From Candidatus Woesearchaeota archaeon (lineage in GTDB: Archaea; Nanobdellota; Nanobdellia; Woesearchaeales; GW2011-AR15), in contig JAVZBY010000003.1 of NCBI GenBank assembly GCA_038874655.1, positions 140,036 through 204,035 on the forward strand: a stretch of DNA of 64,000 bases, in the 5' to 3' direction. Below, piece after piece: positions 3,048-20,454 of this stretch. The first letter of the stretch is position 1, and the number at the start of each line of letters is the position of its first letter. The notes under the pieces are model-generated. The model saw only the letters and a list, made by a program, of their open reading frames with translations, was not told the DNA's origin and ran no database searches. The translations under genes were made by a program, and so were the position numbers.

Positions 3048-6000
3048 ATGAAAAAAAAGATGATAAAAAAGAGGTTATATTTTTTCTTAATTCTTGTATC
3101 ATTTTTTTTATTTTTCTTTATTAATACTATACAATTTTCAAACTCACAAAGTTTAAATTATGAGAAAATCGGCAGATCTTATTTTAATTCTCCAAATTGC
3201 TATATCTATGAAGATAACTCTTTAAAAGATGGCGGCTGCTTATGCTATGAAAATAAAATAATGGGAACTGGTAATGAAGAGGATGGTTTATACTCAACAT
3301 GTAAATCTAGTAACATGGATATTACTCAAATAGAAACTTCTTCAAATGAATGTTCTAAAAATTGTGTTTCTGATCAATACTATATAAGACTTTGCGAATT
3401 TGATGGCAAAAACTTCAATTGTAAAATCTTAGAAAAATTAACAGATTTTCCTTCAATAAAAGAAATAGAACCAATCCTTGATGAAAATGGAAATAAAAAA
3501 TGCTCTACTGATTTTTATAGAAATCCTGGGGAAAATAATTGCTATAAATACTATTTAGACCCAGAGAAAGAATTATGCGAATTACAAGAAACTAGTGAAT
3601 TAGAAAAGTGTAATTGTTTAGATGTTAATACTGTAAATTGTGGTTTTGATGAATTATTAAAATATTGTTGCAAAAAAGAAGAATTCAAAAATGACCCTAG
3701 ATGTAATTGTAATATATTAAGTATTGAAATCAAAGGTAATGAAATTACTTGTCAAGAAAGTTATAAAAGGCCTAAAAAAAATTCATTAAACTGTGAAAAA
3801 TTAACAAAAAAAGATAATTCATGCGTATATTTAGATGTAAATAATAAAGAGTGTTATGATTTTGAATTAAATAACCCTAATAAAAGAAATGGCGATTTAA
3901 ATTGCTTATCTGATCAATTATACCAACTTTATAATGAAGAATGTAAAAATTGTGAAAGCAAATTTATATATGATGTTGAAGAACATAAATGTTATTATAA
4001 ATCACCTGAAACATTTTGTACAGAAAAAGAAGTTTATATATGCAATTGTATAGATTTACTAAAAGAAAATGAAAAAACCTGTGATAATCCTTTTTATCAA
4101 ATCTGCAATTTAGAATGTAAAAATAATGAGCAAAAAAGATGTACAAAAGGTTATTATAGAGATTCATTTAATTCTGATAAATGTTTTATTCAAAAATTAG
4201 AAAACAATATTTGCATAGAAACTCAAGTAGATCCATTAAATTGTTTAGGAATTGATGGTTCTAATTCATGTGTTAATGATAAAATAAAACAAATGACTGA
4301 CGATTGCAATAAAAATTGCTCTGGAATAACTTATTTAAGATCAAAACATAATTCTAATGATTGTTTTGTTAAATCTCCTGATACAGATTGTGAAAAAAAA
4401 GAAACTGATTTAGAAAATTGTTTAGGTATAATGGGATCTAATAATTGTGAAAGTGATCCTATTTATAATAGGTATGGTAATTGTGAAAGACAAGATTCTG
4501 ACAATGATGGCATAGATGATAAATTTGAAAAAAAAGAATGTTTAAACACAAAAAATAACGAGCCTGTAAATAATGATGGCTGTTCTTGTTCTCAAATTAA
4601 TTGTGATGATAATAATCCCTGTACTGATGATTATTGCGAAAATGGTAGATGCATATACAAGTATAACAATAACCCTTGTGGAGAATTTAGAAAATGTCCC
4701 TCCAGTCAATGTGAAAGCAAATATCCTTATGAAAGATGGATTGAATATCCAGAAAGTGGAAAAGATTATTGCTCAGAAGGTAAATGCTTAACTTATAGCT
4801 GTGAAATAAAAAGCATAAAATACTCTAAATATTGTGATCCTGACGATGATGATGACAATGATCCAGATATAACTGATCCATATCCTGAAGATCCTTCTAG
4901 AAACACAGAATCAGAAAAAGAAAAACAAATAATTTGTGAAAAAAATGCCCCAAACTGTGAATTAAATCTTGGGATTTGTAAAGATTCTAAAAAACAATGT
5001 ATAAATAATGAATGGCTAACTTGTGACAAAAACAATTATGGCGAAAATTATGTGCTTGAAGAAGATAATAATCTTTGCGACGGATTAGATAATGATTGTG
5101 ATGGCACAATTGATGAGAATTGTGAATGTATAAACAATGAAATAAAAGAATGTGGCATAAATATTGGAATTTGTAAAAAAGGCATACAAAAATGTATTAA
5201 TGGCAAATGGAGCACTTGTGAAAATGCTATATTTCCAAAAAATGAAACATGTAATAATTTAGATGATGATTGTGATGGTTTAACTGATGAAGATATTTAC
5301 AATTCTGGTGATTACACCTTAAAAGAAGAATGCTTCATAAACCTATGTAAAGGTGTAAAAAAATGCAATTCTAATTGTGAATTATTTGAAGATAACGATA
5401 AAGATAATTATTGTACTACAATAGATAATTGCCCTGAAATTTCAAACACAGATCAGATAGATAGTGATGGTGATTTTATTGGTGATGCTTGTGATGTTTG
5501 TCCATTTGATCCTTTAAATGACATTGATAATGATGGTATTTGTAGTAATACAGATAATTGTCCAACTCTTTATAACCAAAATCAACAAGATTCTGATAAT
5601 GATAACATTGGTGATGCTTGTGATGTTTGTCCAAATGACCAATTAAATGATATTGATAACGATGGTATTTGCAGTAATACAGATAATTGTCCTTTAAAAT
5701 ACAATCCTGAACAAATGGATTGTGATAATAACGGTATTGGTGATATTTGTGATTTAAACTCTCTTTGTGTTATTGATAGTGATAATGACGGAATAAAAGA
5801 TAATAAAGATAATTGTCCTTATATATCAAATTCAGAACAAACAGATTCTGATAAAGATAATATCGGTGATGCTTGTGATGTTTGTCCATTTGATTCTTTA
5901 AATGATATTGATAAAGATGGTGTTTGTGGGAACATTGATAATTGTCCAAACATATATAACCCCAATCAACAAGATTCTGATAAAGATAATATCGGTGATG

Positions 6001-7835
6001 CTTGTGATGTTTGTCCATTTGATTCTTTAAATGATATTGATAATGATGGTATTTGTGGGAATATTGATAATTGCCCTTATAGATTTAATCCTCAACAAAA
6101 TGACTGCAATAAAAATGATATTGGTGATGCTTGCGATACTAATTCAGAATGCTCAATTGACTCTGATAAAGATGGAATTTTAGATGTTTACGATAATTGT
6201 CCCAATATATATAATCCCGAACAAAAAGATGATGATAAAGATGGAATTGGAAATGAATGCGATTTATTTAAAAATGATTTCTTTAATGATAAAGATAAAG
6301 ACGGAATCTCTACTGAGATTGATAATTGTCCTTTTAATTATAATCCTGATCAAAAAGATTCAGATAATGATAAAAAAGGAGATGCTTGCGATATTTGTCC
6401 TTATGACCCATTAAACGATATTGATAGTGATGGTATATGTCATAATATACTAAATAATATATCTCTTGACAATTGTCCTTTTAAATATAATCCTGAACAA
6501 TTAGATTGTGATAAAAATGGAATTGGTGATGCTTGTGATTTAAACTCTAAATGTATAGGTGATATAGATTTAGATAATATATTAGACACAAAAGATAATT
6601 GTCCTTTTAATTATAATCCTGATCAATTAGACCAAGATGGTGATGGTATAGGTGATATTTGTGATATTTGTAAAAAAGATGCCTTTAATGATTTAGATAA
6701 AGATGGTGTTTGTGGAAATATCGATAATTGTCCAAATATATATAACCCAAATCAACAAGATTCTGATAATGATAACATTGGTGATGCTTGTGATATTTGC
6801 CCTTACGATCCATTCAATGATATTGACAAAGATTTAATATGTGGTAATTTAGATAATTGCTTAGAAACAAATAATCCTAAACAATTAGATTGCGATAAAA
6901 ATGGAATTGGTGATGCTTGTGATTTAAACTCAAATTGCGTTAAAGATTATGATAATGACAACATACTAGATTATTATGATAATTGTCCTGAAAGTTATAA
7001 TCCAAATCAATTAGACTCTGATAAAGATAATATTGGTGATGCTTGTGATGTTTGTCCATTTGATCCTTTAAATGACATTGATAATGATGGTATTTGTAGT
7101 AATACAGATAATTGTCCAACTCTTTATAACCCAAATCAACAAGATTCTGATAATGATAATATTGGTGATATCTGTGATCTTTGCCCAAATGATGAAAATA
7201 ATGATATTGATGAAGATACAATTTGTGGCAACTTAGATAATTGCCCTTTTATAAAAAATCCTGGTCAAGAGCTTTGTGATTCTATAAACACTCAACAAAT
7301 TATATTTGACAACAAATTAAAAATAAGATTAGATAACCTTTCAAGTTTAACAAAAAAAGGTGTATTCCTAAACATATCAAAAAATGAAGAGGAAAAATTA
7401 AAAAAATTAAAAGAAAACATAGAAATTGAAACAAAAGAATATTATATAGATAATAAAAAATTTACCAAATATAAAATAACAATTGACTCAAAAAATTTAA
7501 ATAATTTATATTACTATCAAAATATTCCAAAATGCTTAGCTGAGAAAGCAGAAAATCTATATTTTAATGGAAAGAATTATCGTATCATTGAAAATGATCC
7601 TCTAATTGCATGGCAATATTCTAACACTCTAGATAAAGTTGAAATTACCTATGACATTGAAGGAAGTATCTCTAAAGAATGTTTAGCACAATTAAAAGAT
7701 TATATTTATTCTTCAACAATTAAAAATGAAAACAAAAAAAATATTTTATACATAATAATACCTTTAATTTTAATTCCTTTAATAATTTTCATAGTTATTC
7801 TATTAGAAAAAATGCAAAAAACAGATAATAACTAA
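3048..7835 (+). CDS. Giant Cys-rich surface protein with thrombospondin type 3 (Ca-binding) repeats, MopE-like DNDCDG repeats and C-terminal TM anchor
   Basis: Signal peptide; CDDNNPCTDDYC; CDGLDNDCDGTIDE and CNNLDDDCDGLTDE; long array of DNCP..NP.Q.D.D.D.IGDACD; hydrophobic C-terminal segment ILYIIIPLILIPLIIFIVILL. Confidence 0.85.
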   Translation: MKKKMIKKRLYFFLILVSFFLFFFINTIQFSNSQSLNYEKIGRSYFNSPNCYIYEDNSLKDGGCLCYENKIMGTGNEEDGLYSTCKSSNMDITQIETSSNECSKNCVSDQYYIRLCEFDGKNFNCKILEKLTDFPSIKEIEPILDENGNKKCSTDFYRNPGENNCYKYYLDPEKELCELQETSELEKCNCLDVNTVNCGFDELLKYCCKKEEFKNDPRCNCNILSIEIKGNEITCQESYKRPKKNSLNCEKLTKKDNSCVYLDVNNKECYDFELNNPNKRNGDLNCLSDQLYQLYNEECKNCESKFIYDVEEHKCYYKSPETFCTEKEVYICNCIDLLKENEKTCDNPFYQICNLECKNNEQKRCTKGYYRDSFNSDKCFIQKLENNICIETQVDPLNCLGIDGSNSCVNDKIKQMTDDCNKNCSGITYLRSKHNSNDCFVKSPDTDCEKKETDLENCLGIMGSNNCESDPIYNRYGNCERQDSDNDGIDDKFEKKECLNTKNNEPVNNDGCSCSQINCDDNNPCTDDYCENGRCIYKYNNNPCGEFRKCPSSQCESKYPYERWIEYPESGKDYCSEGKCLTYSCEIKSIKYSKYCDPDDDDDNDPDITDPYPEDPSRNTESEKEKQIICEKNAPNCELNLGICKDSKKQCINNEWLTCDKNNYGENYVLEEDNNLCDGLDNDCDGTIDENCECINNEIKECGINIGICKKGIQKCINGKWSTCENAIFPKNETCNNLDDDCDGLTDEDIYNSGDYTLKEECFINLCKGVKKCNSNCELFEDNDKDNYCTTIDNCPEISNTDQIDSDGDFIGDACDVCPFDPLNDIDNDGICSNTDNCPTLYNQNQQDSDNDNIGDACDVCPNDQLNDIDNDGICSNTDNCPLKYNPEQMDCDNNGIGDICDLNSLCVIDSDNDGIKDNKDNCPYISNSEQTDSDKDNIGDACDVCPFDSLNDIDKDGVCGNIDNCPNIYNPNQQDSDKDNIGDACDVCPFDSLNDIDNDGICGNIDNCPYRFNPQQNDCNKNDIGDACDTNSECSIDSDKDGILDVYDNCPNIYNPEQKDDDKDGIGNECDLFKNDFFNDKDKDGISTEIDNCPFNYNPDQKDSDNDKKGDACDICPYDPLNDIDSDGICHNILNNISLDNCPFKYNPEQLDCDKNGIGDACDLNSKCIGDIDLDNILDTKDNCPFNYNPDQLDQDGDGIGDICDICKKDAFNDLDKDGVCGNIDNCPNIYNPNQQDSDNDNIGDACDICPYDPFNDIDKDLICGNLDNCLETNNPKQLDCDKNGIGDACDLNSNCVKDYDNDNILDYYDNCPESYNPNQLDSDKDNIGDACDVCPFDPLNDIDNDGICSNTDNCPTLYNPNQQDSDNDNIGDICDLCPNDENNDIDEDTICGNLDNCPFIKNPGQELCDSINTQQIIFDNKLKIRLDNLSSLTKKGVFLNISKNEEEKLKKLKENIEIETKEYYIDNKKFTKYKITIDSKNLNNLYYYQNIPKCLAEKAENLYFNGKNYRIIENDPLIAWQYSNTLDKVEITYDIEGSISKECLAQLKDYIYSSTIKNENKKNILYIIIPLILIPLIIFIVILLEKMQKTDNN
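5390..7280 (+). repeat. Intragenic tandem repeat array, ~129-bp (43-aa) units encoding TSP3 repeats
   Basis: 72 bp identical at 5843-5914 and 5972-6043 (129-bp period); 101 bp identical at 5477-5577 and 7031-7131. Confidence 0.85.
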
Positions 7836-11063: not shown

Positions 11064-12146
11064 CTAAGGATTTACTTTAACCTCTACATTTACTCCTTTT
11101 TCTGTTTGAACAACTACCTTAGGTTTATCCTGATTATCATTTTTATTATTAGTCTCTTCTTTTACTTCTTTTTTCTCATTTTGTTGCTTCTTCTTTTTTT
11201 TAATACTTTTTTGCTCTTTTTTATTTGAATTTATTTCTTTTTTCTTATTTTTACTATTTTTTTGTTTTGTTTCTTTTTTTACACTTTTTTGTGTTTTATT
11301 ATCCTTTACTTTTGTTTCTTTTAATTTTTGTGTACCCTCTTTTTTTAATTGTTTTTCCAACTTAACTAGTTCTTTTTCTACATCACTAAAGCTAGATTTT
11401 TTATTGCTTTTTTTAGCATTTGTTTTTTTAACTTTTGATTTTTTTGCTTCTTTTTTATTTGATTTTACTTTTTTCTTCTTTTGAGATTTTCCTGATTTTT
11501 TAACTTTTTTATCTGAAGATTCTGTTTTATGGTGTATAATTATTGGTTTTTCAACAACTTTAACAACACTCTCTTTTACCTCACTCTCTTTTACATTAGT
11601 TTGTTCTTTAAGTTGATTCGCCTCTTTACTTTCTTCATCTTTTTTTGGTTCAGGTATCTTCAATTCATCTGTAGAATCTAATAATTTTTTATCTTCTTTA
11701 TAATAGTCCTTATATTTCATAATATCTTTTAAAACCATATCAACTAGATTATTATCTTTCCATCCTTTTGATTCTAAATTTTGCTTTATTTGTTCAGAAC
11801 TATATCCTTTATTCATTGCCCATATAACATAGTTCATTATTTTATATAAATCAGGAGCCAACCTCTTTAAATATAATGTTTCTGTGTCATCTTCTAATTC
11901 TTGTATTTCTTGTTCAAATTTACTTAAATCTGTTGATTCTTCTGTTTCAAATCTTCTAATCTCATCTAAATCCTTTTTTTCTTCTTCTGCTAATTTTTCT
12001 AATTGCATTAATTCTTCTTGCTCTTCAGTAGTCATTCTTTGTAATTTTTGCAGCTGAACTAAAATTATAACAAGCAAGATTAAAAATAATATCACTAACA
12101 TAAAGAAAATTTCAGGTAAAGGCATATTTACTCCAAATACTAACAT
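11064..12146 (-). CDS. Membrane-anchored protein with acidic coiled coil and long Lys-rich low-complexity tail
   Basis: SD GAGGTGAT upstream; N-terminal TM; E-rich heptads; small helical YV...KGYS.EQIK..L...GW domain; K-rich C-terminal third. Confidence 0.7.
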   Translation of the reverse strand: MLVFGVNMPLPEIFFMLVILFLILLVIILVQLQKLQRMTTEEQEELMQLEKLAEEEKKDLDEIRRFETEESTDLSKFEQEIQELEDDTETLYLKRLAPDLYKIMNYVIWAMNKGYSSEQIKQNLESKGWKDNNLVDMVLKDIMKYKDYYKEDKKLLDSTDELKIPEPKKDEESKEANQLKEQTNVKESEVKESVVKVVEKPIIIHHKTESSDKKVKKSGKSQKKKKVKSNKKEAKKSKVKKTNAKKSNKKSSFSDVEKELVKLEKQLKKEGTQKLKETKVKDNKTQKSVKKETKQKNSKNKKKEINSNKKEQKSIKKKKKQQNEKKEVKEETNNKNDNQDKPKVVVQTEKGVNVEVKVNP

Positions 12147-12231: not shown

Positions 12232-15200
12232 CTAAGATTCTAAATCAACACTAGATTCTGCTACTTTATTAATGATCCTGAAACTACCTCCTTTGTATAG
12301 ATAAGCATTTATCTTATAATTAATTCCTTCTCTTACACAATAGGGGTTTGATAGTAAAGGCTCAATTACTATACCTTGAATATAAACACTTCTCATATAA
12401 TCCACAATAACGCTTTTTCCGAATATAGTAGATGGATCATGTATATCTAACTCTATATCTGAATAACCTTCATAATCTCTGTTATTTACTATATAATATA
12501 AATCATAACATACCATGTTTCCTTTATTGAATCTAGAATCTGGCATTGCTCTTATCTCAAATTCTGGAATCACAACTTCTAACTCAATATCTTTTTGAGC
12601 TAAAAGATCATTATTGTTTTTTATATATAATTTTAATATTGCTTTACTTGAAGTATAATCCTTTACTAAAACAACAAAATTAATCTCTTTTTCTTCTCCA
12701 GCAGTAATTTTTTTGATAATTAGATTATTATTTTTTACATCTATTTTATTTGGCGCTTCTAAAGAAATAACTAAATCTTCTAACTCTCTATTTAGATTGT
12801 TTTTTAATTTTACTTTTACTAAAACAGAATCTAATACATTAACAACATTTTTAGTATTAATAGTTATTGTAAATAACTCTTCATTAAGTAGACAGTTTTC
12901 ATCTACTTGTCCATTACAGTTATCGTCTATATTATTACATAATTCCATTCTTCCTGGATTTATATTATAATCATTATCATTACAATCATTACTACCTGAA
13001 CATGTGCTTAAAATTTTATAATAACCATCATTATCTAAATCTACACAAACAGGTTGTTGATTTTGTGTTGTTGGTTTATAACATAATTTTGTATTTGAAT
13101 TGCATAATAATCCACTCTTACAAGAATCTCTTTTTTCATAACAATCTTCGCATGCACAACCCTCGCCTATTTCACATTCTCCGTTTGGTTGCCCTATACA
13201 TCCTTTTTTGCCGCCATGATTTTCACATGTTGCATCACAAGTATTATCATTACATAAAACAGTTCCTTCATCACAATAATAAGTTCTATCTTCTACACAC
13301 AAAGAAGTGAAATAATTACACTTTGCTCCTAAAACACAACCGTCTCTTAAATCATGACAATCTTTACAACCACATCCTTCTCCTAATTGACAGAAACCAT
13401 CTTCAACAATGCAACCTTTAACACCTCCATGATTAGCACATGTTTCATTACAGGTATTATCATTACATAAAGTTGTTCCAACAGGACAACCACATAAACC
13501 AAAAGAACAAATAGCTCCTTGAACACAACTATCTTGTTTGTTTCTACAATCTTCGCAAGCACATCCTTCTCCTATTTCACATTTTCCGTTTCTATTTATA
13601 CAACCTGCAAAACCACTATCTGTTTCTAGACAATTTCTACTACATGTTCCGTCTTTACATAATGCTGTTCCAGGCAAACATTGTTTAAATGCATCATTGC
13701 AATTACTACCATTCCAAACACAACCAAATTGTGTTAATGATGCCCTACAAGGATCAAAAACACATGAAATCTCATTAGTATAGTTTGAACATTTCATATT
13801 ACTTTTACAATTTTCACAATAATCCCCTAAATTACTTGTTGGGAATAAAGCATCAAAAATAGTGCTTGTATTTATCCAATAACCCCCACAATCAAATAAA
13901 CATTTCTCTGCACTACAACCTTCTAAAAAAGGAGGTATTATTGTTTGTTTCCCACAATTTTCTGGCTTATCACATCCACTTGTACATAAAGGATTAGAAT
14001 AACTAAATGGATTTGTTATTGGATTAATTTTACGCTGTGTTAAATATACTTTTCTCAAATTAACTAAACCTTCAAAATTAACATTGAAATTCATTACTGA
14101 ATCAGTTTTTATAACTAAACAATCTAAATCATTTTTAACTTTTGATAAGTACAATACTTCTTTATTATTATCTCTTAATTGATAACTATCTTGGTTTAAA
14201 TCAAAATTATTTAATTCTTTAACAAGCATAGATTTTTCTGAATTTATCCTTATAGTAATATTGTGTTGAATACTATCGTCTGAATAAGTACAAACAAAAT
14301 AATTACAATTTGAATCCCATATATATACTCCATAACCCTGCAAAAACTCTGGTTCATCAATTAAACCATCGCAATCATTATCAACACCATCATTTAATGT
14401 ACTTTCAAAATTTTCTGTTTTTACACAAGGTAAAGAACATTTTTCATTAAGATAATCACATACTAATCCCTGTGCACAACTATCTTTTTTATTAGAGCAA
14501 TCTACACATGCACAACCTTCTCCTTCTTCACATATGCCATTTCTTATATTACAACCCTTTGATGCTGTATCAGTTTCTTTACAATTTTCACTACATGTCC
14601 CCTCTTGGCATAGTGTTGTTCCTAAAGGACATTGACATAAGAAATTAGTATCACAAACAGCACCTAAAACACATCCATCTTGTTTTCCTAAACAATCTGA
14701 ACATGCACACCCTTCTCCTTCTACACAATTTCCATCTGGATCACCAATACAACCCATAAAATCTGTATCTGTTTCTTTACAATCTGAACTACATGTTCCA
14801 TCTTGACATAAACCTGTTCCTACTGGACAACCTTTTAATTCACAACTACATGTGTTTAAATTACATGTTTTACCTTCACCACAATCTTGATCATTACCAC
14901 ATTGTGCCCCACATTTATTCTTTACACACTTGGGTAAATCATATAAACAGTTACAATCTGCACATCCTATTCTTTGTGAAACTTTTTTACTATTTTGTGA
15001 ACACAAAAATTCATTGCAATTATTGCCAAAAACAGGTCGATTATTTATAACATCACATTCTTCTACTGATTCTAGTTTTTCATTACCACATATATTAACA
15101 TTTTCACCTACACAACTATTACAACTCATAACATCTGCATCTGTTATAGCACCATCACTATTAATATCATAAATATTTAAAGACTCTGTATCTGTTTTTC

Positions 15201-16797
15201 CGATATTATTAAATATTGCTGTTAAATCTGCATCATCTACTACATTTGAACTTTCTCCTTCTGTATTAACATTACATTTTAAACATATATTTTGACAAGT
15301 TTCATCTATATATCTTATCCAAACACCATACCTTGGTCTTCCTAAAATATTTGTTATCTCAACTTCTTTACAAACCTTTTTTACACCTTGTGAGCAATAT
15401 GCAAAATTTTCTTCTCTACATTTACCTTGCTCATCTACACAAAGATGTGTATTATTAATACAACATGAAGAAGGATTATTACTCAATTGACCTATTTCTG
15501 AATATTGCATATATGCTGGATTTACAGAATTATAAGTATTAATTGAAACATAATAGTCAATTGGTATTTCCTTATTATCATCTCCACAACACAATCCTTG
15601 AATATCTTCTAACCCCTCAACTTCTTCATTGGGTTTAAAAGTATCTTTACCATAATAACATTGATTTTCATTTTCACAATCAAACCATTTTGATTTAATA
15701 AAGTGATAAACATATTGTGGTGTCTCAGGTGTATTTGACATAGATACAAACTCTTTAATAATTACTTTATCTGTACAATTCCCTTCATTTACATCCAAAT
15801 CAAGCCACCCTCCTTGAATACCATTTCTTGAATAACAATATTCTATTTCATTATCACCATCTGCATCAATTAAAGTGCCAACTGGATGTCCTTTTTTATT
15901 AATGTCAACACAATCTGTATTCCTGTAACTACAATTTATAATATTTGTATTTGAATTACATTCATCCCAATTATATACTAAATTATTCTCATAAAAATAA
16001 TAATAAGTATAATCATAAGGATTTTCATCTCTTCCAGTTTCAAAAACATAATAATCAAAATCAGGATTAATATTATCATTAACTTTTGGACAATAGAAGA
16101 AATTTTCATATCTTATTGGAACAATCACTTCTTCTGTAACATCATATGTATTTGTGTCTAATGCGGTTTTTATTTCATTTCTATTACCTTTAACTATAAC
16201 CCTTAAAGGAGTATTAGAAACAATACTTTGTGTAATTGCTTCATTAGGAACTTGAATCTCTTCCCTAAATGCATATGCATTTCCAACATTATTATAAACT
16301 AAATCCTCATTATCCCAACTTTTATCAACTGTTATAGTATCTCCACAATATGTACAAGCTACTTCTAAAATAAATTTTTTTGAATTAGGACTATTATTCA
16401 AACAAATCTCTGAAACAGAAGCAGTTAAAGATGCTGGCGGATAATTACAAACATTATTATTACATATGCCATAATAGCCACACTTTGTTCCTAATCCAGA
16501 ACATGTGCCACAATTATTAGTTGGTGTTATTTGTACACCACATTGCACTTGAGATGCAGGTGGACATTGAGGTGTACATGATGAACCCTCATTATATTGT
16601 CCACAACAACACGCTAAAACACCATTATCATCTCTACATCCATCAAAGCCAGGTTTACAGTTTGGATAAGTATATTGAATATCTCCCTGACAACAATATT
16701 GACTACATAATTTAGCATTAGAGGGAAATAAAAATATTATAAAAAAAATTAAATATATTATATAATAAAAATTGTTAAACTTATAATTCTCTTTCAT
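12232..16797 (-). CDS. Giant secreted Cys-rich protein with dockerin-like domain, five ~60-aa Cys modules, MopE-like repeats and C-terminal Ig/CARDB-like domain
   Basis: Start at ATG 16797 after SD-like AGGTGG; signal peptide ending PSNA; NVNTEG..VVDDADLTAIFNNIG and DINSDGAITDADV; DNDCDGLIDE; DLDNDGY..DCNDND.NINPG..ELCN.IDDNCNG.VDE; no C-terminal TM. Confidence 0.8.
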   Translation of the reverse strand: MKENYKFNNFYYIIYLIFFIIFLFPSNAKLCSQYCCQGDIQYTYPNCKPGFDGCRDDNGVLACCCGQYNEGSSCTPQCPPASQVQCGVQITPTNNCGTCSGLGTKCGYYGICNNNVCNYPPASLTASVSEICLNNSPNSKKFILEVACTYCGDTITVDKSWDNEDLVYNNVGNAYAFREEIQVPNEAITQSIVSNTPLRVIVKGNRNEIKTALDTNTYDVTEEVIVPIRYENFFYCPKVNDNINPDFDYYVFETGRDENPYDYTYYYFYENNLVYNWDECNSNTNIINCSYRNTDCVDINKKGHPVGTLIDADGDNEIEYCYSRNGIQGGWLDLDVNEGNCTDKVIIKEFVSMSNTPETPQYVYHFIKSKWFDCENENQCYYGKDTFKPNEEVEGLEDIQGLCCGDDNKEIPIDYYVSINTYNSVNPAYMQYSEIGQLSNNPSSCCINNTHLCVDEQGKCREENFAYCSQGVKKVCKEVEITNILGRPRYGVWIRYIDETCQNICLKCNVNTEGESSNVVDDADLTAIFNNIGKTDTESLNIYDINSDGAITDADVMSCNSCVGENVNICGNEKLESVEECDVINNRPVFGNNCNEFLCSQNSKKVSQRIGCADCNCLYDLPKCVKNKCGAQCGNDQDCGEGKTCNLNTCSCELKGCPVGTGLCQDGTCSSDCKETDTDFMGCIGDPDGNCVEGEGCACSDCLGKQDGCVLGAVCDTNFLCQCPLGTTLCQEGTCSENCKETDTASKGCNIRNGICEEGEGCACVDCSNKKDSCAQGLVCDYLNEKCSLPCVKTENFESTLNDGVDNDCDGLIDEPEFLQGYGVYIWDSNCNYFVCTYSDDSIQHNITIRINSEKSMLVKELNNFDLNQDSYQLRDNNKEVLYLSKVKNDLDCLVIKTDSVMNFNVNFEGLVNLRKVYLTQRKINPITNPFSYSNPLCTSGCDKPENCGKQTIIPPFLEGCSAEKCLFDCGGYWINTSTIFDALFPTSNLGDYCENCKSNMKCSNYTNEISCVFDPCRASLTQFGCVWNGSNCNDAFKQCLPGTALCKDGTCSRNCLETDSGFAGCINRNGKCEIGEGCACEDCRNKQDSCVQGAICSFGLCGCPVGTTLCNDNTCNETCANHGGVKGCIVEDGFCQLGEGCGCKDCHDLRDGCVLGAKCNYFTSLCVEDRTYYCDEGTVLCNDNTCDATCENHGGKKGCIGQPNGECEIGEGCACEDCYEKRDSCKSGLLCNSNTKLCYKPTTQNQQPVCVDLDNDGYYKILSTCSGSNDCNDNDYNINPGRMELCNNIDDNCNGQVDENCLLNEELFTITINTKNVVNVLDSVLVKVKLKNNLNRELEDLVISLEAPNKIDVKNNNLIIKKITAGEEKEINFVVLVKDYTSSKAILKLYIKNNNDLLAQKDIELEVVIPEFEIRAMPDSRFNKGNMVCYDLYYIVNNRDYEGYSDIELDIHDPSTIFGKSVIVDYMRSVYIQGIVIEPLLSNPYCVREGINYKINAYLYKGGSFRIINKVAESSVDLES

Positions 16798-16927
16798 ATA
16801 CCCCACCTTCTAAAAGTATTATTTTATTTTTAAAACATTATTAATTAATTTTTAATAAAAGTAATCTCATTTTTTACATATATAAACTTTTCGCTCCTAG
16901 ATAAATTATATCCTAAAAATATCATTT

Positions 16928-17953
16928 CTAATTCACATTCTTTATTAATATCAAAGCACCTTTTTTTGTATCTGGTAAATCTTCAATGGAATATGCGTTA
17001 AAATTACAATCTAATAACCTTAAATTACTATCACCAAATAATTCATCAAAATTAATATTAGTTTCTGTATCATCATTAACATTTTTTGCTTTAAATGTCA
17101 ATTTAGCTATACTTCCTGAACCAGAAGCACATTCATTACCTATAACTCCTAAACTAAATCTTCCCTCACTTGGACTTATCAATGGATAAGAAATACTGTT
17201 TATTTCTTTATGAGAATTATCTAAATTAACAACAAAAACAGAATCAAATAAACTATTTTCATTATAAGATGACGATGTAATTATACCAGTCCTTTCAAGA
17301 GATATAAAATTAGGGTCATACTTTATAGTAATTTGTATAGATCTTAAATTATTAACACAATAAAGATTCAAATACAAATCAAACTCATTGTTCTCATTAA
17401 CAATTACATCATATTTGCTGTAAATATTGCTTTGTTTTGATTCCAAACTAGCTTGATTTTTAGAAATTCTTATTCCATCTTTATCACTTTTAGTTATACA
17501 ATGTCTATTAGTAGTTTCATTAATCTTTTCTGCAAAATTCCCTTTCACAAAAGTAGGCAAAATACTATTATAGGTTTTTTTCACTTTTTTATTTCCGCCT
17601 AAATAATATTTATCAAAAATAATTAAGGTTATTTCATCATTGCTTAAATTAAGTGTATATTCATATCCCATTAATCGTGTTGGTAATTCAAATTCCCTAT
17701 AATAATTATTATGCATTGATGAAGCAATAATAATTTCATTTTTTATATCATTAATCAAATTAATAATCTCTTGATTTTCTTTTTCTTGGCTAATCTCAGA
17801 AATTCTATTTGTAATTAAATATATAAAACCAGTTATAACTAAAAAAACAATACCAAAAATTAATATAAATTCAAAGGATATCTGAGCTATTTTAGCTATT
17901 TTAAAGTATTTAAGCAAACCTTCTTTTGTTATAGTTTTATTAATTTTTTTCAT
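16928..17953 (-). CDS. Pilin-like protein (class III signal) fused to C-terminal cohesin-like domain
   Basis: KIA|QISFEFILIFG (Q+1, E+5); C-terminal EFDLYLNL..VNNLRSIQITIKYDPNFI...GRFSLG...SGSGSIAKLTFKAK...TNINF matches the cohesin consensus; start set at ATG 17953. Confidence 0.75.
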   Translation of the reverse strand: MKKINKTITKEGLLKYFKIAKIAQISFEFILIFGIVFLVITGFIYLITNRISEISQEKENQEIINLINDIKNEIIIASSMHNNYYREFELPTRLMGYEYTLNLSNDEITLIIFDKYYLGGNKKVKKTYNSILPTFVKGNFAEKINETTNRHCITKSDKDGIRISKNQASLESKQSNIYSKYDVIVNENNEFDLYLNLYCVNNLRSIQITIKYDPNFISLERTGIITSSSYNENSLFDSVFVVNLDNSHKEINSISYPLISPSEGRFSLGVIGNECASGSGSIAKLTFKAKNVNDDTETNINFDELFGDSNLRLLDCNFNAYSIEDLPDTKKGALILIKNVN

Positions 17954-17985
17954 TTTAAAAACATCAATTTTCACAGAGACTTTAA

Positions 17986-18774
17986 TCAAGTTTCTTGACA
18001 ACCATTTTTACAAATACCTTTTCCTTTAAAATTATCACTTTTACTTAATTTATTTAAAACAGATGCTTCGTCATCATTATTAGTATCAATCAACCAACTA
18101 TTTGTAATTTTACCTCTATTTCCTGCTGAATCATAACTATAAATTCCATAAACACTTATCTTTATTATTTTATTAGTTTTCCCTTTCCATGAAGCAAAAT
18201 TAGTTTTATCTGCTATTTCATAATTAAAAGTTCCATTTAATTCTAATGTCCATGGATCAATTTGCTTAATAAAATTTCCAAAAAAAGAAACATTTAATTT
18301 TTTCAATTCAATATTTAAGTAAGAAAAATTTTTTTCTAAATCACTTTTTAAATTAGTAAACAAATATCTTTTGTCAATGTAATTCAATTGTGTTAAATTA
18401 TAATCTCTATTATTAACAGTCAAATTACCATCATAAAAAACATCTGGAAATGCTGATAAGAAAGATTTAATATAATTTTGATTAAACCCATTATCATAAT
18501 AAAAATGTGATAAACCAATTATGACTTCTTTAGAACTAATATATAACATGTTTTCTAAATAATAATTTTCAAAATCATTCACAAATGAATTTAAAACTTT
18601 TAACCTTGCTCTTGTAGCATCAAGATCTGAAACTTTTTCATATCTTTTTGAGTTTAAATCAATAGTTGCTAAAAATAAAAAAACAAATAAAATAGAAGTA
18701 ATTGTAAAAAAAACAGACTTTTTATTATTTTTTAATCTAAATTTTTTTAATTTAATTAAGATTCTATTTTTCAT
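17986..18774 (-). CDS. Minor-pilin-like protein with class III-type signal peptide
   Basis: Basic leader then KKS|VFFTITSILFVFLFL; overlaps upstream gene; operonic with other pilin-like genes. Confidence 0.6.
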   Translation of the reverse strand: MKNRILIKLKKFRLKNNKKSVFFTITSILFVFLFLATIDLNSKRYEKVSDLDATRARLKVLNSFVNDFENYYLENMLYISSKEVIIGLSHFYYDNGFNQNYIKSFLSAFPDVFYDGNLTVNNRDYNLTQLNYIDKRYLFTNLKSDLEKNFSYLNIELKKLNVSFFGNFIKQIDPWTLELNGTFNYEIADKTNFASWKGKTNKIIKISVYGIYSYDSAGNRGKITNSWLIDTNNDDEASVLNKLSKSDNFKGKGICKNGCQET

Positions 18775-19330
18775 TCCAAAAAAGCACCTCTACTAAATAA
18801 GGGCCAAATTTAATAAAACTACCATCATTTGGATTTTCATAATACCCAAAAACAATAGTTTGTCTATTAATTATTTGCTCAGCTTTTTGAAATTTATCAC
18901 CTTTTGAAAAAATCTCTTCATTGTTTATTCTTATTTTAAGTCCATATCTATCATCAACTAAATTATATGTGTCTATAAAATCTTTAATTAATAATTTTAT
19001 TTGAGCTCTATTATTTTTATTATATAACTCACCAATAATGGTAATTAAAGTTTGATTAATATTTACATTATTATGTATTGCTGTTAAATTATTAAAATTG
19101 CAATTTCCTGCATTACACAAATCTTCACCCTTAACATTAGTTATTAAATCATAAAAATTGTCTGCTATATTATCCATAGTTATAGCATTACTTTCCGCCC
19201 TATAACTTGAAAATAATAATAAATACCCCATAATCAATATAATTATCCCAAAAATTCCATCAATTATGAAAAATTGTGCTTTTTTATATCTCATTTTGCA
19301 TAACTTTTTACAAATATAATTATTTGCCAT
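18764..19330 (-). CDS. Minor-pilin-like protein with class III signal peptide
   Basis: KKA|QFFIIDGIFGIIILI; start either 19330 or 19294. Confidence 0.7.
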   Translation of the reverse strand: MANNYICKKLCKMRYKKAQFFIIDGIFGIIILIMGYLLLFSSYRAESNAITMDNIADNFYDLITNVKGEDLCNAGNCNFNNLTAIHNNVNINQTLITIIGELYNKNNRAQIKLLIKDFIDTYNLVDDRYGLKIRINNEEIFSKGDKFQKAEQIINRQTIVFGYYENPNDGSFIKFGPYLVEVLFWNEK

Positions 19331-19332
19331 CT

Positions 19333-19887
19333 TTACTCTGCACATATATAAACATTAAAAGTATAAATATCCTTTTGATTATTATAATCATAAAGAACAT
19401 TTCTCTTAATAAGTATTGATTCTTTCAACGAACATTTTGGATTAGCAACTATATTATTTAAATCAGAATCTCCACATAAAATCCTTTCTCCAATAGTTAA
19501 AAAATAAACATAATTATTATTATAATTAGGAAAAACTGCCCTGCTTTTTATTATCCTATTGTTTTTATCTTGTAGATATAAACAATAAGAAATCCTCTTA
19601 ACAGAATTCGTTGTTAAATCTTTAAAAAAAAAGTCATATAAAACATTATTATCCTCATTAAAAAAAGCATCTAGCTTATTATTATCAATTTTAATTCCAT
19701 CTAAAAAATCTTTTTCCTCATCATAAATTTCATTTAACTTATTAAACATTAACTCATATTGAATATCCAATTTTTTTTCAGATGTCAAAAAAAAAGCATT
19801 ATTCAATCCATAAAAAAATAAGGATACTGCAAATATATATAAAATAAAAGTCATAACAAAATCCATACTAATAATTTGAGATTTCAT
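19333..19887 (-). CDS. Minor-pilin-like protein with class III signal peptide
   Basis: MKS|QIISMDFVMTFILYIF. Confidence 0.7.
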   Translation of the reverse strand: MKSQIISMDFVMTFILYIFAVSLFFYGLNNAFFLTSEKKLDIQYELMFNKLNEIYDEEKDFLDGIKIDNNKLDAFFNEDNNVLYDFFFKDLTTNSVKRISYCLYLQDKNNRIIKSRAVFPNYNNNYVYFLTIGERILCGDSDLNNIVANPKCSLKESILIKRNVLYDYNNQKDIYTFNVYICAE

Positions 19888-19899
19888 TTTTTACAAATT

Positions 19900-20454
19900 T
19901 TAACTATATTCTTGTTTTGAGATATTAACACAAATCTTTTGTATTACATTATTATTTTGATATTTATAAATACAATTTGGGATTACATCCAAGTAAATAC
20001 CTTTTAAACCTTCTCCATATATACTTTTTTTTAAACATTTACAATCATTATCAATACAAAGTTCATCTGGATTTATATCGCAATTATCACCATACAATGG
20101 AACACTAGACTCATACATAACTTTATTTTCCCCTCCTGTTGTAATATATTTAAAAATCAAATATGTTTCATTTCCACCTTTAACATTTAATATATACATA
20201 TTAGTAATACCCGAAGGCATCTCAAAAGTTAAGGTTGTTCTAGATGAAACACCATAATAATAAATTTTTCTTGCATTATTTATAATTAAATTAGAAATTT
20301 GATTTAGTTTATTATTAATTGCAAAATCATTGCTTTGGAAAACATAATTTCTAAAAACATAAATTCCAGAAAGCAAAATAGCTAATGCAATAGCAATCAT
20401 TAAAACATATTCCATTGCAAACTGAGATTTACCCCTTTTTTTAAAAATCTTCAT
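19900..20454 (-). CDS. Pilin-like protein with canonical class III signal peptide
   Basis: KKRGKS|QFAMEYVLMIAIALAIL (Q+1, E+5). Confidence 0.8.
   Translation of the reverse strand: MKIFKKRGKSQFAMEYVLMIAIALAILLSGIYVFRNYVFQSNDFAINNKLNQISNLIINNARKIYYYGVSSRTTLTFEMPSGITNMYILNVKGGNETYLIFKYITTGGENKVMYESSVPLYGDNCDINPDELCIDNDCKCLKKSIYGEGLKGIYLDVIPNCIYKYQNNNVIQKICVNISKQEYS

Follow-up and report, generated by a model that had tools for sequence, protein, structure and literature searches.

The window analysed here is the whole stretch of 64,000 nucleotides (nt) taken from contig 3 of the genome of a Candidatus Woesearchaeota archaeon, an assembly of 1.26 Mb in 17 contigs that is 97% complete. It is AT-rich, with a G+C content of about 25%. 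An alternative genetic code was ruled out, as every frame is open under translation table 11. Six consecutive, co-oriented open reading frames (ORFs) on the minus strand form the locus of interest: five genes for pilin-like proteins, then a gene for a large secreted protein. The fifth pilin-like protein bears a predicted cohesin at its C-terminus and is called the cohesin-pilin below; the large protein contains a predicted dockerin and is called the cargo protein. The features are as follows, with lengths in amino acids (aa) and a caret at the presumed signal cleavage site.

19900..20454, minus strand: pilin-like gene 1, 184 aa, N-terminus ...KRGKS^QFAMEY..., with Glu at +5 past the presumed cleavage site.
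19333..19887, minus strand: pilin-like gene 2, 184 aa, N-terminus MKS^QIISMDF...
18764..19345, minus strand: pilin-like gene 3, ORF of 193 aa, N-terminus MRYKKA^QFFIIDG... when read from an internal ATG.
17986..18774, minus strand: pilin-like gene 4, 262 aa, N-terminus ...NKKS^VFFTITS, without an acidic residue near +5.
16928-17953, minus strand: cohesin-pilin (gene 5), 341 aa from its ATG; the longest ORF extends to 18001 (357 aa).
17441..17953, minus strand: pilin module of the cohesin-pilin, residues 1-171 of 341, a leader and then A^QISFEF, with Glu at +5.
16940..17416, minus strand: cohesin module of the cohesin-pilin, residues about 180-338.
12232..16797, minus strand: secreted Cys-rich cargo protein, 1521 aa from its ATG; the longest ORF extends to 16806 (1524 aa).
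15097..15276, minus strand: internal dockerin module of the cargo protein, residues 511-570 of the 1524-aa ORF.
11064..12146, minus strand: conserved gene after the cargo gene, for a membrane protein of 360 aa; its membrane segment is N-terminal, and it also has an acidic, coiled-coil-like stretch and a tail rich in Lys.

Genes 1 to 4 are separated by gaps of 12 nt or overlap by 11-13 nt, and the cohesin-pilin starts 32 nt past gene 4. A gap of 130 nt lies between the cohesin-pilin (16928) and the cargo gene (16797). The true start of gene 3 is probably the internal ATG, at about 19294.

A preliminary description of this locus, made from the letters alone, had seen a cohesin-like beta-sandwich at the C-terminus of gene 5, and profile and fold searches bear this out. 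The Pfam family Cohesin (PF00963) matches residues 206-333 of the 357-aa ORF at 37.6 bits, above its cut-off of 24.1 (E 3.2e-9), and scores 38.6 bits in a six-frame search of the genome. An AF2 model built from 29 homologues has a pLDDT of 89.1 and consists of a helix of 70 residues (10-79), a small beta domain (84-171) and a beta-sandwich (183-338). The top Foldseek matches of this model in the PDB are all cohesins, with TMt up to 0.73 and 72 matches at E<=0.001. They include 1g1k_A (E 2e-8, TMt 0.72) and the non-cellulosomal cohesin 2xdh of Archaeoglobus fulgidus (TMt 0.72). Judged by profile and predicted fold, the C-terminal module is a true cohesin.

In the same model, the pilin module has a pLDDT mostly above 85, with its long N-terminal helix packed on the small beta domain. 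The protein thus has the build of a modular pilin, two confident domains in one model, each with separate homologues. A family profile of the cohesin-pilin was scanned with HMMER against 1.84 billion representative proteins, and 33 of these matched at E<=1e-30. Both modules are spanned by 26 of the 150 best matches. Another 15 are long proteins in which several stretches match, in the cohesin part only; one that was scanned, P0047, holds ten cohesins, a CBM3 and a dockerin. Most of the remaining matches are proteins of about 125-190 aa that match the pilin part only, and a sample of ten of these gave DUF7266 matches in all ten (one above cut-off) and Class_IIIsignal matches in seven (below cut-off). 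By these counts the fusion appears rare and built of two separable modules. The same pilin module carries a cohesin, four DUF4215 and a Laminin_G_3 in one relative (G018), and a Laminin_G_3 with a PKD in the homologue P0119. None of the cohesin proteins at ten loci from other families of the order has a class III-like N-terminus. At one locus from another family of the order (G020, L059 79-4482), a 163-aa gene with the class III-like N-terminus MKKKSQISSH... lies directly upstream of a 1303-aa cohesin-containing protein; this may be an unfused version of the same idea.

The cargo protein is, as the preliminary description had it, a secreted Cys-rich protein of about 1520 aa without a C-terminal anchor: it contains 140 Cys, and residues 9-35 form the sole hydrophobic segment of the 1524-aa ORF. 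Its parts come in the order signal peptide, Cys-rich N-terminus, conserved head domain, dockerin, Cys-rich repeats (five, of about 65 aa each), MopE-type motifs (two) and beta-rich C-terminus. The contrast drawn earlier with a nearby TSP3 protein also holds. That protein (3048-7835, plus strand, 1595 aa) has a signal peptide, 14 TSP_3 repeat matches and a C-terminal membrane segment that the cargo protein lacks. A 1209-aa paralogue of the TSP3 protein on contig C1 (L064 12102-15731) has the class III-like N-terminus MKFKKSQISLF... instead.

The segment read earlier as a two-repeat dockerin scores close to the limit of its family. In three scans, alone or in six frames, the isolated segment obtained 20.2-21.3 bits, the Dockerin_1 (PF00404) cut-off being 22.9, and a Pfam scan of the whole cargo protein gave no Dockerin_1 match at E<=1. 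By the calcium-loop rule D-x-N-x-D-G...D, the second repeat, DINSDGAITDAD, is canonical, and the first, NVNTEGESSNVVDDAD, has a 4-residue loop insertion. We aligned nine segments from the family, eight from cargo orthologues (the window copy included) and one from an unrelated cargo protein in a relative, G004. The segments occupy the same position, between conserved cysteines, and a C-x-x-CGDN motif comes after them. The window copy and that of G010 share the insertion, the other seven lacking it; by eye, extra residues are also seen in the first loop of the G001 and G009 copies. All nine match Dockerin_1 at E<=1 (best E 2.8e-7), and a profile made from them retrieves solved dockerins first, beginning with 2vn5_B, endoglucanase A of Clostridium cellulolyticum (E 4.3e-5). 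The top 21 among the matches listed are all dockerin-bearing, and EF-hand proteins such as secretagogin and calexcitin appear from E 0.076 and weaker. A lone EF-hand was considered for the segment and ruled out by the two conserved repeats and by the solved dockerins ranking first. From its family alignment, then, the segment reads as a two-repeat dockerin.

The rest of the cargo protein resembles little. At E<=1, the Pfam scan of the 1524-aa ORF gave only MopE, PTHB1_GAE and EF-hand_7, and the NCBIfam scan nothing; no enzyme domain and no PilY1-type domain was recognised in these scans. A protein atlas search gave no usable match. An AF2 model of residues 125-500 was poor (pLDDT 62.7, confident only in the first ~120 residues), and Foldseek with the head domain found only generic Ig-like sandwiches, none at E<=0.001.

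Six-frame searches of the genome detect exactly one cohesin and one dockerin, and these lie in adjacent genes; no dockerin protein beyond the cargo protein came up. At roughly 1300 genes, a number estimated from the 1.26 Mb, the chance that a single cohesin and a single dockerin are neighbours is about 0.15%.

Conservation was followed in the 20 genomes of the same taxonomic family, the source genome (G000) included. A Pfam cohesin is present in 15 of them, always one per genome and fused to the pilin in 13, and Pfam dockerins are present in 14, with one to three each. Pilin fusions with a C-terminal domain occur in 17 of the 20 genomes; in the most distant ones (G006, G009, G013 and G015) this domain has large insertions and no Pfam cohesin score. 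The preliminary description had raised the case of fusions occurring in relatives without a dockerin partner. In our sample a dockerin protein, recognised by Pfam or by the family profile and reading of the sequence, accompanies the fusion in 16 of the 17 genomes. The exception is G002, in which the cargo orthologue is cut by the contig end some 466 residues in, before the dockerin position. One genome, G008 (89% complete), has neither cohesin nor dockerin.

In 10 genomes, the dockerin protein is encoded on the same strand, at most four genes downstream of the cohesin-pilin. The pair is kept in G017, G019 and G009, though the cargo orthologue lies elsewhere in the genome. In the closest relative, G001, the cargo orthologue is on another contig than the cohesin-pilin, whose contig measures only 3.2 kb, so that the two may or may not be linked; the gene after the cohesin-pilin there (L038 1699-3239) is an unrelated ORF that matches no family and runs for 513 aa until the contig ends. 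Two local oddities were seen. In G007 (L033 6044-12216, minus strand) the cargo orthologue is split in two ORFs of 877 and 1186 aa with the dockerin in the first; the split may be genuine, or it may stem from a frameshift or from an error in the assembly. In G015 (L035 7504-11439, minus strand) a 1311-aa protein with four Hint/intein-like matches is encoded between the cohesin-pilin and the dockerin proteins.

The dockerin is not tied to one kind of protein. Orthologues of the cargo protein were found in 11 other genomes of the family, counting the truncated one of G002. In G004, the cohesin-pilin has a cargo protein of another kind as its neighbour: unrelated and 1817 aa long, it combines Laminin_G_3, Kazal and PPC domains with a dockerin that clears the cut-off at 24.3 bits. 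Several relatives encode additional secreted proteins whose dockerin lies at the C-terminus or close to it. They include a GH5 cellulase in G014 (L045 4242-6746), where the sole Pfam cohesin hit in the genome is a single one, and two tandem secreted proteins with beta-lactamase-fold, Golvesin_C, MopE and dockerin regions in G013 (L047 1127-5375), which also has a single Pfam cohesin hit. Other dockerin proteins of relatives are a Laminin_G_3 protein and one with a weak match to the GH115 C-terminal domain (21.0 bits, cut-off 24.1). The proteins tagged with a dockerin among the relatives thus include, besides the large Cys-rich protein, some of lectin type, a GH5 glycosidase and hydrolases of the beta-lactamase fold. 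In none of 20 dockerin proteins examined was there a membrane segment beyond the N-terminal one. The earlier idea of a swappable cargo holds in part: the cargo varies between relatives while the dockerin is kept, which, as read from the sequences, fits swappability over evolutionary time, but nothing is swapped within this cell because the genome has only one dockerin.

We modelled the complex of cohesin residues 164-341 with a 96-residue dockerin segment, each with its own shallow alignment (9 and 27 rows). The median ipSAE was 0.77, versus 0.40 for the best of three controls; runs agreed in at least 94% of contacts, and the pLDDT of the partner was at least 68. Of 80 solved complexes 58 reach the pass mark used, as do 2 of 110 mismatched pairs. 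Four strand segments of the cohesin (residues 204-207, 240-248, 269-272 and 309-325) are predicted to contact the dockerin, which would contribute the helix after its first loop and part of its second helix. The pairing of the two domains put forward in the preliminary description passes the mark in this model, in a family for which solved complexes exist and memory is possible. As cohesin-dockerin complexes have already been solved, the pass would indicate likeness to known pairs rather than prove binding of this one.

All five small proteins begin with a short basic leader, then G, S or A, then about 20 hydrophobic residues, and each pattern is kept across 15-17 orthologues. The orthologue motifs are KKRG^QISVEY for gene 1 (15 orthologues), K[SA]^QIISMDF for gene 2 (15), KK[AG]^YFF(L/I)ID for gene 3 (15), KK[GS]^[VI]FFSI for gene 4 (17) and K[SA]^QISFEF for the cohesin-pilin. 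Five co-oriented genes with class III signals had been described here; the pattern and its conservation ground this reading well, and by it the proteins would be processed and polymerised. A check with the Pfam model Class_IIIsignal (PF04021, 27 positions, cut-off 23.7 bits) went both ways. Of 79 orthologue N-termini, 26 give a match at E<=0.1 (best 2.7e-6), and the homologue P0018 obtains 23.3 bits, but in the window the model touches two of the five proteins, one of them gene 1, at 15.9 bits. Gene 1 also bears a weak resemblance (E 1e-5) to the pilin module of the cohesin-pilin. Both have Glu at +5 after the presumed cleavage site, and gene 4 has no acidic residue there. In bacteria, the cap subunit of the filament lacks Glu5. 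If this rule applies, gene 4, lacking an acidic residue at +5, would be the cap, with the cohesin-pilin below it.

Genes for pilus assembly are present in the genome, on contigs C1, C2 and C11: one match to Peptidase_A24, the prepilin peptidase (52 bits), five T2SSE-family ATPase matches and six T2SSF platform matches, these last two over cut-off. In five relatives, the flanks of the operon hold housekeeping genes (tRNA synthetases, mevalonate-pathway genes, GatD).

A second five-gene pilin-like set lies on contig C1 (L064 878-7368, about 260.9-267.4 kb), and four of its genes are detectably paralogous to those of the window.

161 aa: paralogue of gene 1 (26.6 bits).
132 aa: paralogue of the pilin module of the cohesin-pilin (23.6 bits), without a cohesin.
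1264 aa: paralogue of gene 3 (31.3 bits), with a split VWA-like module.
326 aa: paralogue of gene 4 (42.6 bits).
197 aa: resembles gene 2 in its N-terminal motif only.

The 1264-aa pilin has a DVSGS motif, and its VWA scores are just under the Pfam cut-offs (23.4 versus 23.8; 21.5 versus 27). At a distance of 8-12 kb from this set are genes for a T2SSE-family ATPase (757 aa) and for a pilin-like protein (175 aa). The C1 set carries a large adhesion-type module covalently on a pilin, and by analogy the window set would hold its large partner by cohesin-dockerin contact. The paralogous set is our best comparative argument for the five proteins acting as a display platform.

The 360-aa gene that comes after the cargo gene has no family match in Pfam or NCBIfam. 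It follows the cargo gene at the loci of seven relatives (L023-L026, L028, L030 and L033), and also accompanies the unlinked cargo gene in G001, G017 and G019. In G017 there are two copies, one directly after the cohesin-pilin and the other after the cargo gene.

We propose the following explanation for the locus. The last gene of the five-gene operon would encode a modular type IV pilin-like protein with a cohesin grafted at its C-terminus, and this cohesin would capture, non-covalently, the dockerin embedded in the large secreted protein encoded directly downstream. By analogy with solved pairs, the link would be calcium-dependent. Docking would tether the anchorless Cys-rich protein to the structure built by the five pilin-like proteins, most likely a minor-pilin complex on a type IV filament, and this filament would be assembled by the ATPase, platform and prepilin peptidase genes located elsewhere in the genome. 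The signals would be cleaved, the cohesin-pilin incorporated into the filament and the cargo protein held perhaps at the tip. Support in silico comes from four sides: the two domains are identified, the genome searches find no other cohesin or dockerin, relatives keep the pair, and the complex model passes its controls. Taken as a whole, the docking of the secreted protein on a pilus-like structure by the cohesin-pilin seems to us reasonably probable. Binding of the window dockerin by the cohesin, considered alone, is likely. We put display of the cohesin-pilin on a filament, rather than retention in the membrane, at slightly below even chances, and we are doubtful that the cargo mediates attachment to another cell. 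The words adhesin and host attachment, used in the preliminary description, are guesses that fit the presumed lifestyle of the organism.

Several observations weigh against this explanation. On the dockerin side, the window copy falls just under the Pfam cut-off and its first calcium loop is interrupted by the 4-residue insertion. Two genomes, G003 and G012, have dockerin-like proteins and no detected cohesin, and in 6 of the 17 fusion genomes the dockerin protein is not encoded near the pilin gene. The pass of the complex model, obtained with shallow alignments, may reflect memory of solved cohesin-dockerin complexes. The 25 contact residues of the cohesin have a mean conservation of 0.55, versus 0.57 for the other 134 (Mann-Whitney p=0.58), a neutral result that neither supports nor refutes binding. 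On the pilin side, no window protein reaches the Class_IIIsignal cut-off in the Pfam scan, and three of the five, gene 2 among them, have no family match at all in Pfam or NCBIfam. No pilus ATPase, platform or peptidase gene was found beside the operon here or in the flanks scanned in 10 relatives. Finally, no result of the Pfam, NCBIfam, atlas, AF2 or Foldseek searches marks the cargo protein as an adhesin.

The alternative that survives best is a membrane-anchored mini-scaffoldin. The cohesin-pilin would stay unpolymerised, its hydrophobic helix, cleaved or not, holding a single cohesin at the cell surface, so that dockerin-tagged proteins would sit on the cell body, as with the anchoring scaffoldins of cellulosomes; the other four proteins would perhaps form a short stalk through the S-layer. 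The sugar-binding proteins of Sulfolobus, which have class III signals, offer a parallel. All the cohesin-dockerin evidence applies equally to this arrangement, the lack of linked assembly genes favours it, and the GH5 cellulase and beta-lactamase-fold hydrolases among the dockerin proteins of relatives fit the display of enzymes. It accounts less well for the cohesin-pilin gene being always the last of a conserved five-gene pilin-like set, for the paralogous set lying near an ATPase gene and small pilin-like genes, and for a pilin module that resembles polymerising pilins both in its Glu at +5 and in its shape, a helix with a beta domain. In addition, bacterial modular pilins of the same build are displayed on filaments, according to PMC8179133. 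We consider the mini-scaffoldin unlikely, though well short of negligible.

Another alternative does without any pairing. The cargo protein would then have the dockerin-like segment as a structural insert that binds calcium, the cohesin fold would be there for contacts between pilins or with glycans, and the adjacency of the genes would only reflect a shared operon of surface proteins. The sub-threshold score and the loop insertion of the window dockerin speak for it, as do the lack of preferential conservation at the predicted interface, the ability of complex predictors to pass family look-alikes, and the orphan dockerins or cohesins of G003 and G012. Against it stand the position side by side of the single cohesin and the single dockerin of the genome, their co-occurrence in 16 of 17 genomes and joint absence from G008, the dockerin borne by the unrelated neighbouring cargo of G004, and the absence of any other anchor in dockerin proteins. 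We regard the lack of pairing as improbable. Still less credible, and very improbable in our view, is a secretion pseudopilus in which the five pilin-like proteins, recalling in number the five pseudopilins of type II secretion and tightly linked to the gene of the large secreted protein, would push this protein through the envelope, the cohesin-dockerin contact being a transient loading step: the cargo protein comes with a Sec-type signal peptide of its own, archaea lack the outer membrane that such a device would serve to cross, the cohesin-dockerin pairs that have been solved hold together stably and with high affinity, and the paralogous set fuses a large module covalently to a pilin, which points to display rather than export.

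The docking explanation joins elements that are known separately. Among bacterial modular type IV pilins, PilB of Streptococcus sanguinis combines a pilin with a vWA module and PilC a pilin with a lectin module (Raynaud et al. 2021, main text of PMC8179133). Like them, the cohesin-pilin has a small pilin module with a class III signal and a non-pilus module at its C-terminus, and is encoded among minor pilins. The lectin-type Laminin_G_3 found on the pilin module in relatives and the VWA-like module of the paralogous operon recall the modules of PilC and PilB. The cohesin-pilin differs from those bacterial cases in carrying an adaptor, with the effector role left to a secreted protein encoded separately, and in belonging to an archaeon. 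That article surveyed modular pilins by means of IPR012902, a bacterial motif, and its main text contains neither the word cohesin nor the word archaea.

In the tip complex of bacterial type IV pilins discussed in PMC8179133, a large non-pilin protein, PilY1/PilC, is encoded beside minor pilin genes and proposed to be kept at the filament by their products. The cargo protein is similarly a large non-pilin protein encoded beside a minor pilin gene set and proposed to be held at a filament, but its attachment would pass through cohesin and dockerin and not through the C-terminal propeller of PilY1. It may work like PilY1 without being a member of that family.

Non-cellulosomal cohesin-dockerin pairs are known in archaea, as passages of PMC10066038 and PMC10553843 relate. 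With those pairs and cellulosomal ones (2vn5/2vn6 of Clostridium cellulolyticum; 2xdh), the window pair shares the cohesin fold and, as read from the family alignment, probably the two-repeat form of the dockerin. As in cellulosome-type systems, the dockerins are on secreted, anchorless proteins, and in some relatives on glycoside hydrolases. Unlike in a cellulosome, there is a single cohesin, borne by a pilin-like module rather than by an SLH, sortase or membrane-anchored scaffoldin, and the dockerin is internal in the cargo protein, not C-terminal. In contrast to scaffoldin systems, which combine several cohesins and a carbohydrate-binding module (CBM) with many dockerin-bearing enzymes, no CBM was found, and the one dockerin protein of the genome has no recognisable enzyme domain.

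The preliminary description knew of no such pair, and our literature search agrees with it: no description of a pilin-cohesin fusion or of a pilus-docked dockerin protein was found, supplementary tables being outside the scope of the search, and Dataset S1 of PMC8179133 could list a bacterial case. What appears new is the combination of a pilin-borne cohesin with dockerin-tagged, anchorless secreted proteins; modular pilins and non-cellulosomal pairs were already known. In silico, support for the pairing is good; the cellular setting we give it is a proposal.

Little has been established about the way in which ultra-small DPANN archaea cling to surfaces or partner cells, and we know of no described adhesive tip component of archaeal type IV filaments. 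We can imagine, as a somewhat unlikely extension, that the filament cohesin is a general socket presenting any dockerin-tagged protein. The pilus would then bear a counterpart of the cellulosome that has one socket and changes its cargo in the course of evolution, for contact with, or attack on, another cell or surface. Being orthogonal, the cohesin-dockerin pair could also find use as a tool. In the modular pilins described so far the effector is covalently attached; a pilin bearing an adaptor would separate the carrier from the effector. If this is true, the transfer of a module of about 60 residues would allow the lineage to alter the display on its filament. Cohesin-dockerin pairs of cellulosomes are strong under force, and such a force-resistant link would then gain a role in a structure that is itself under pull.

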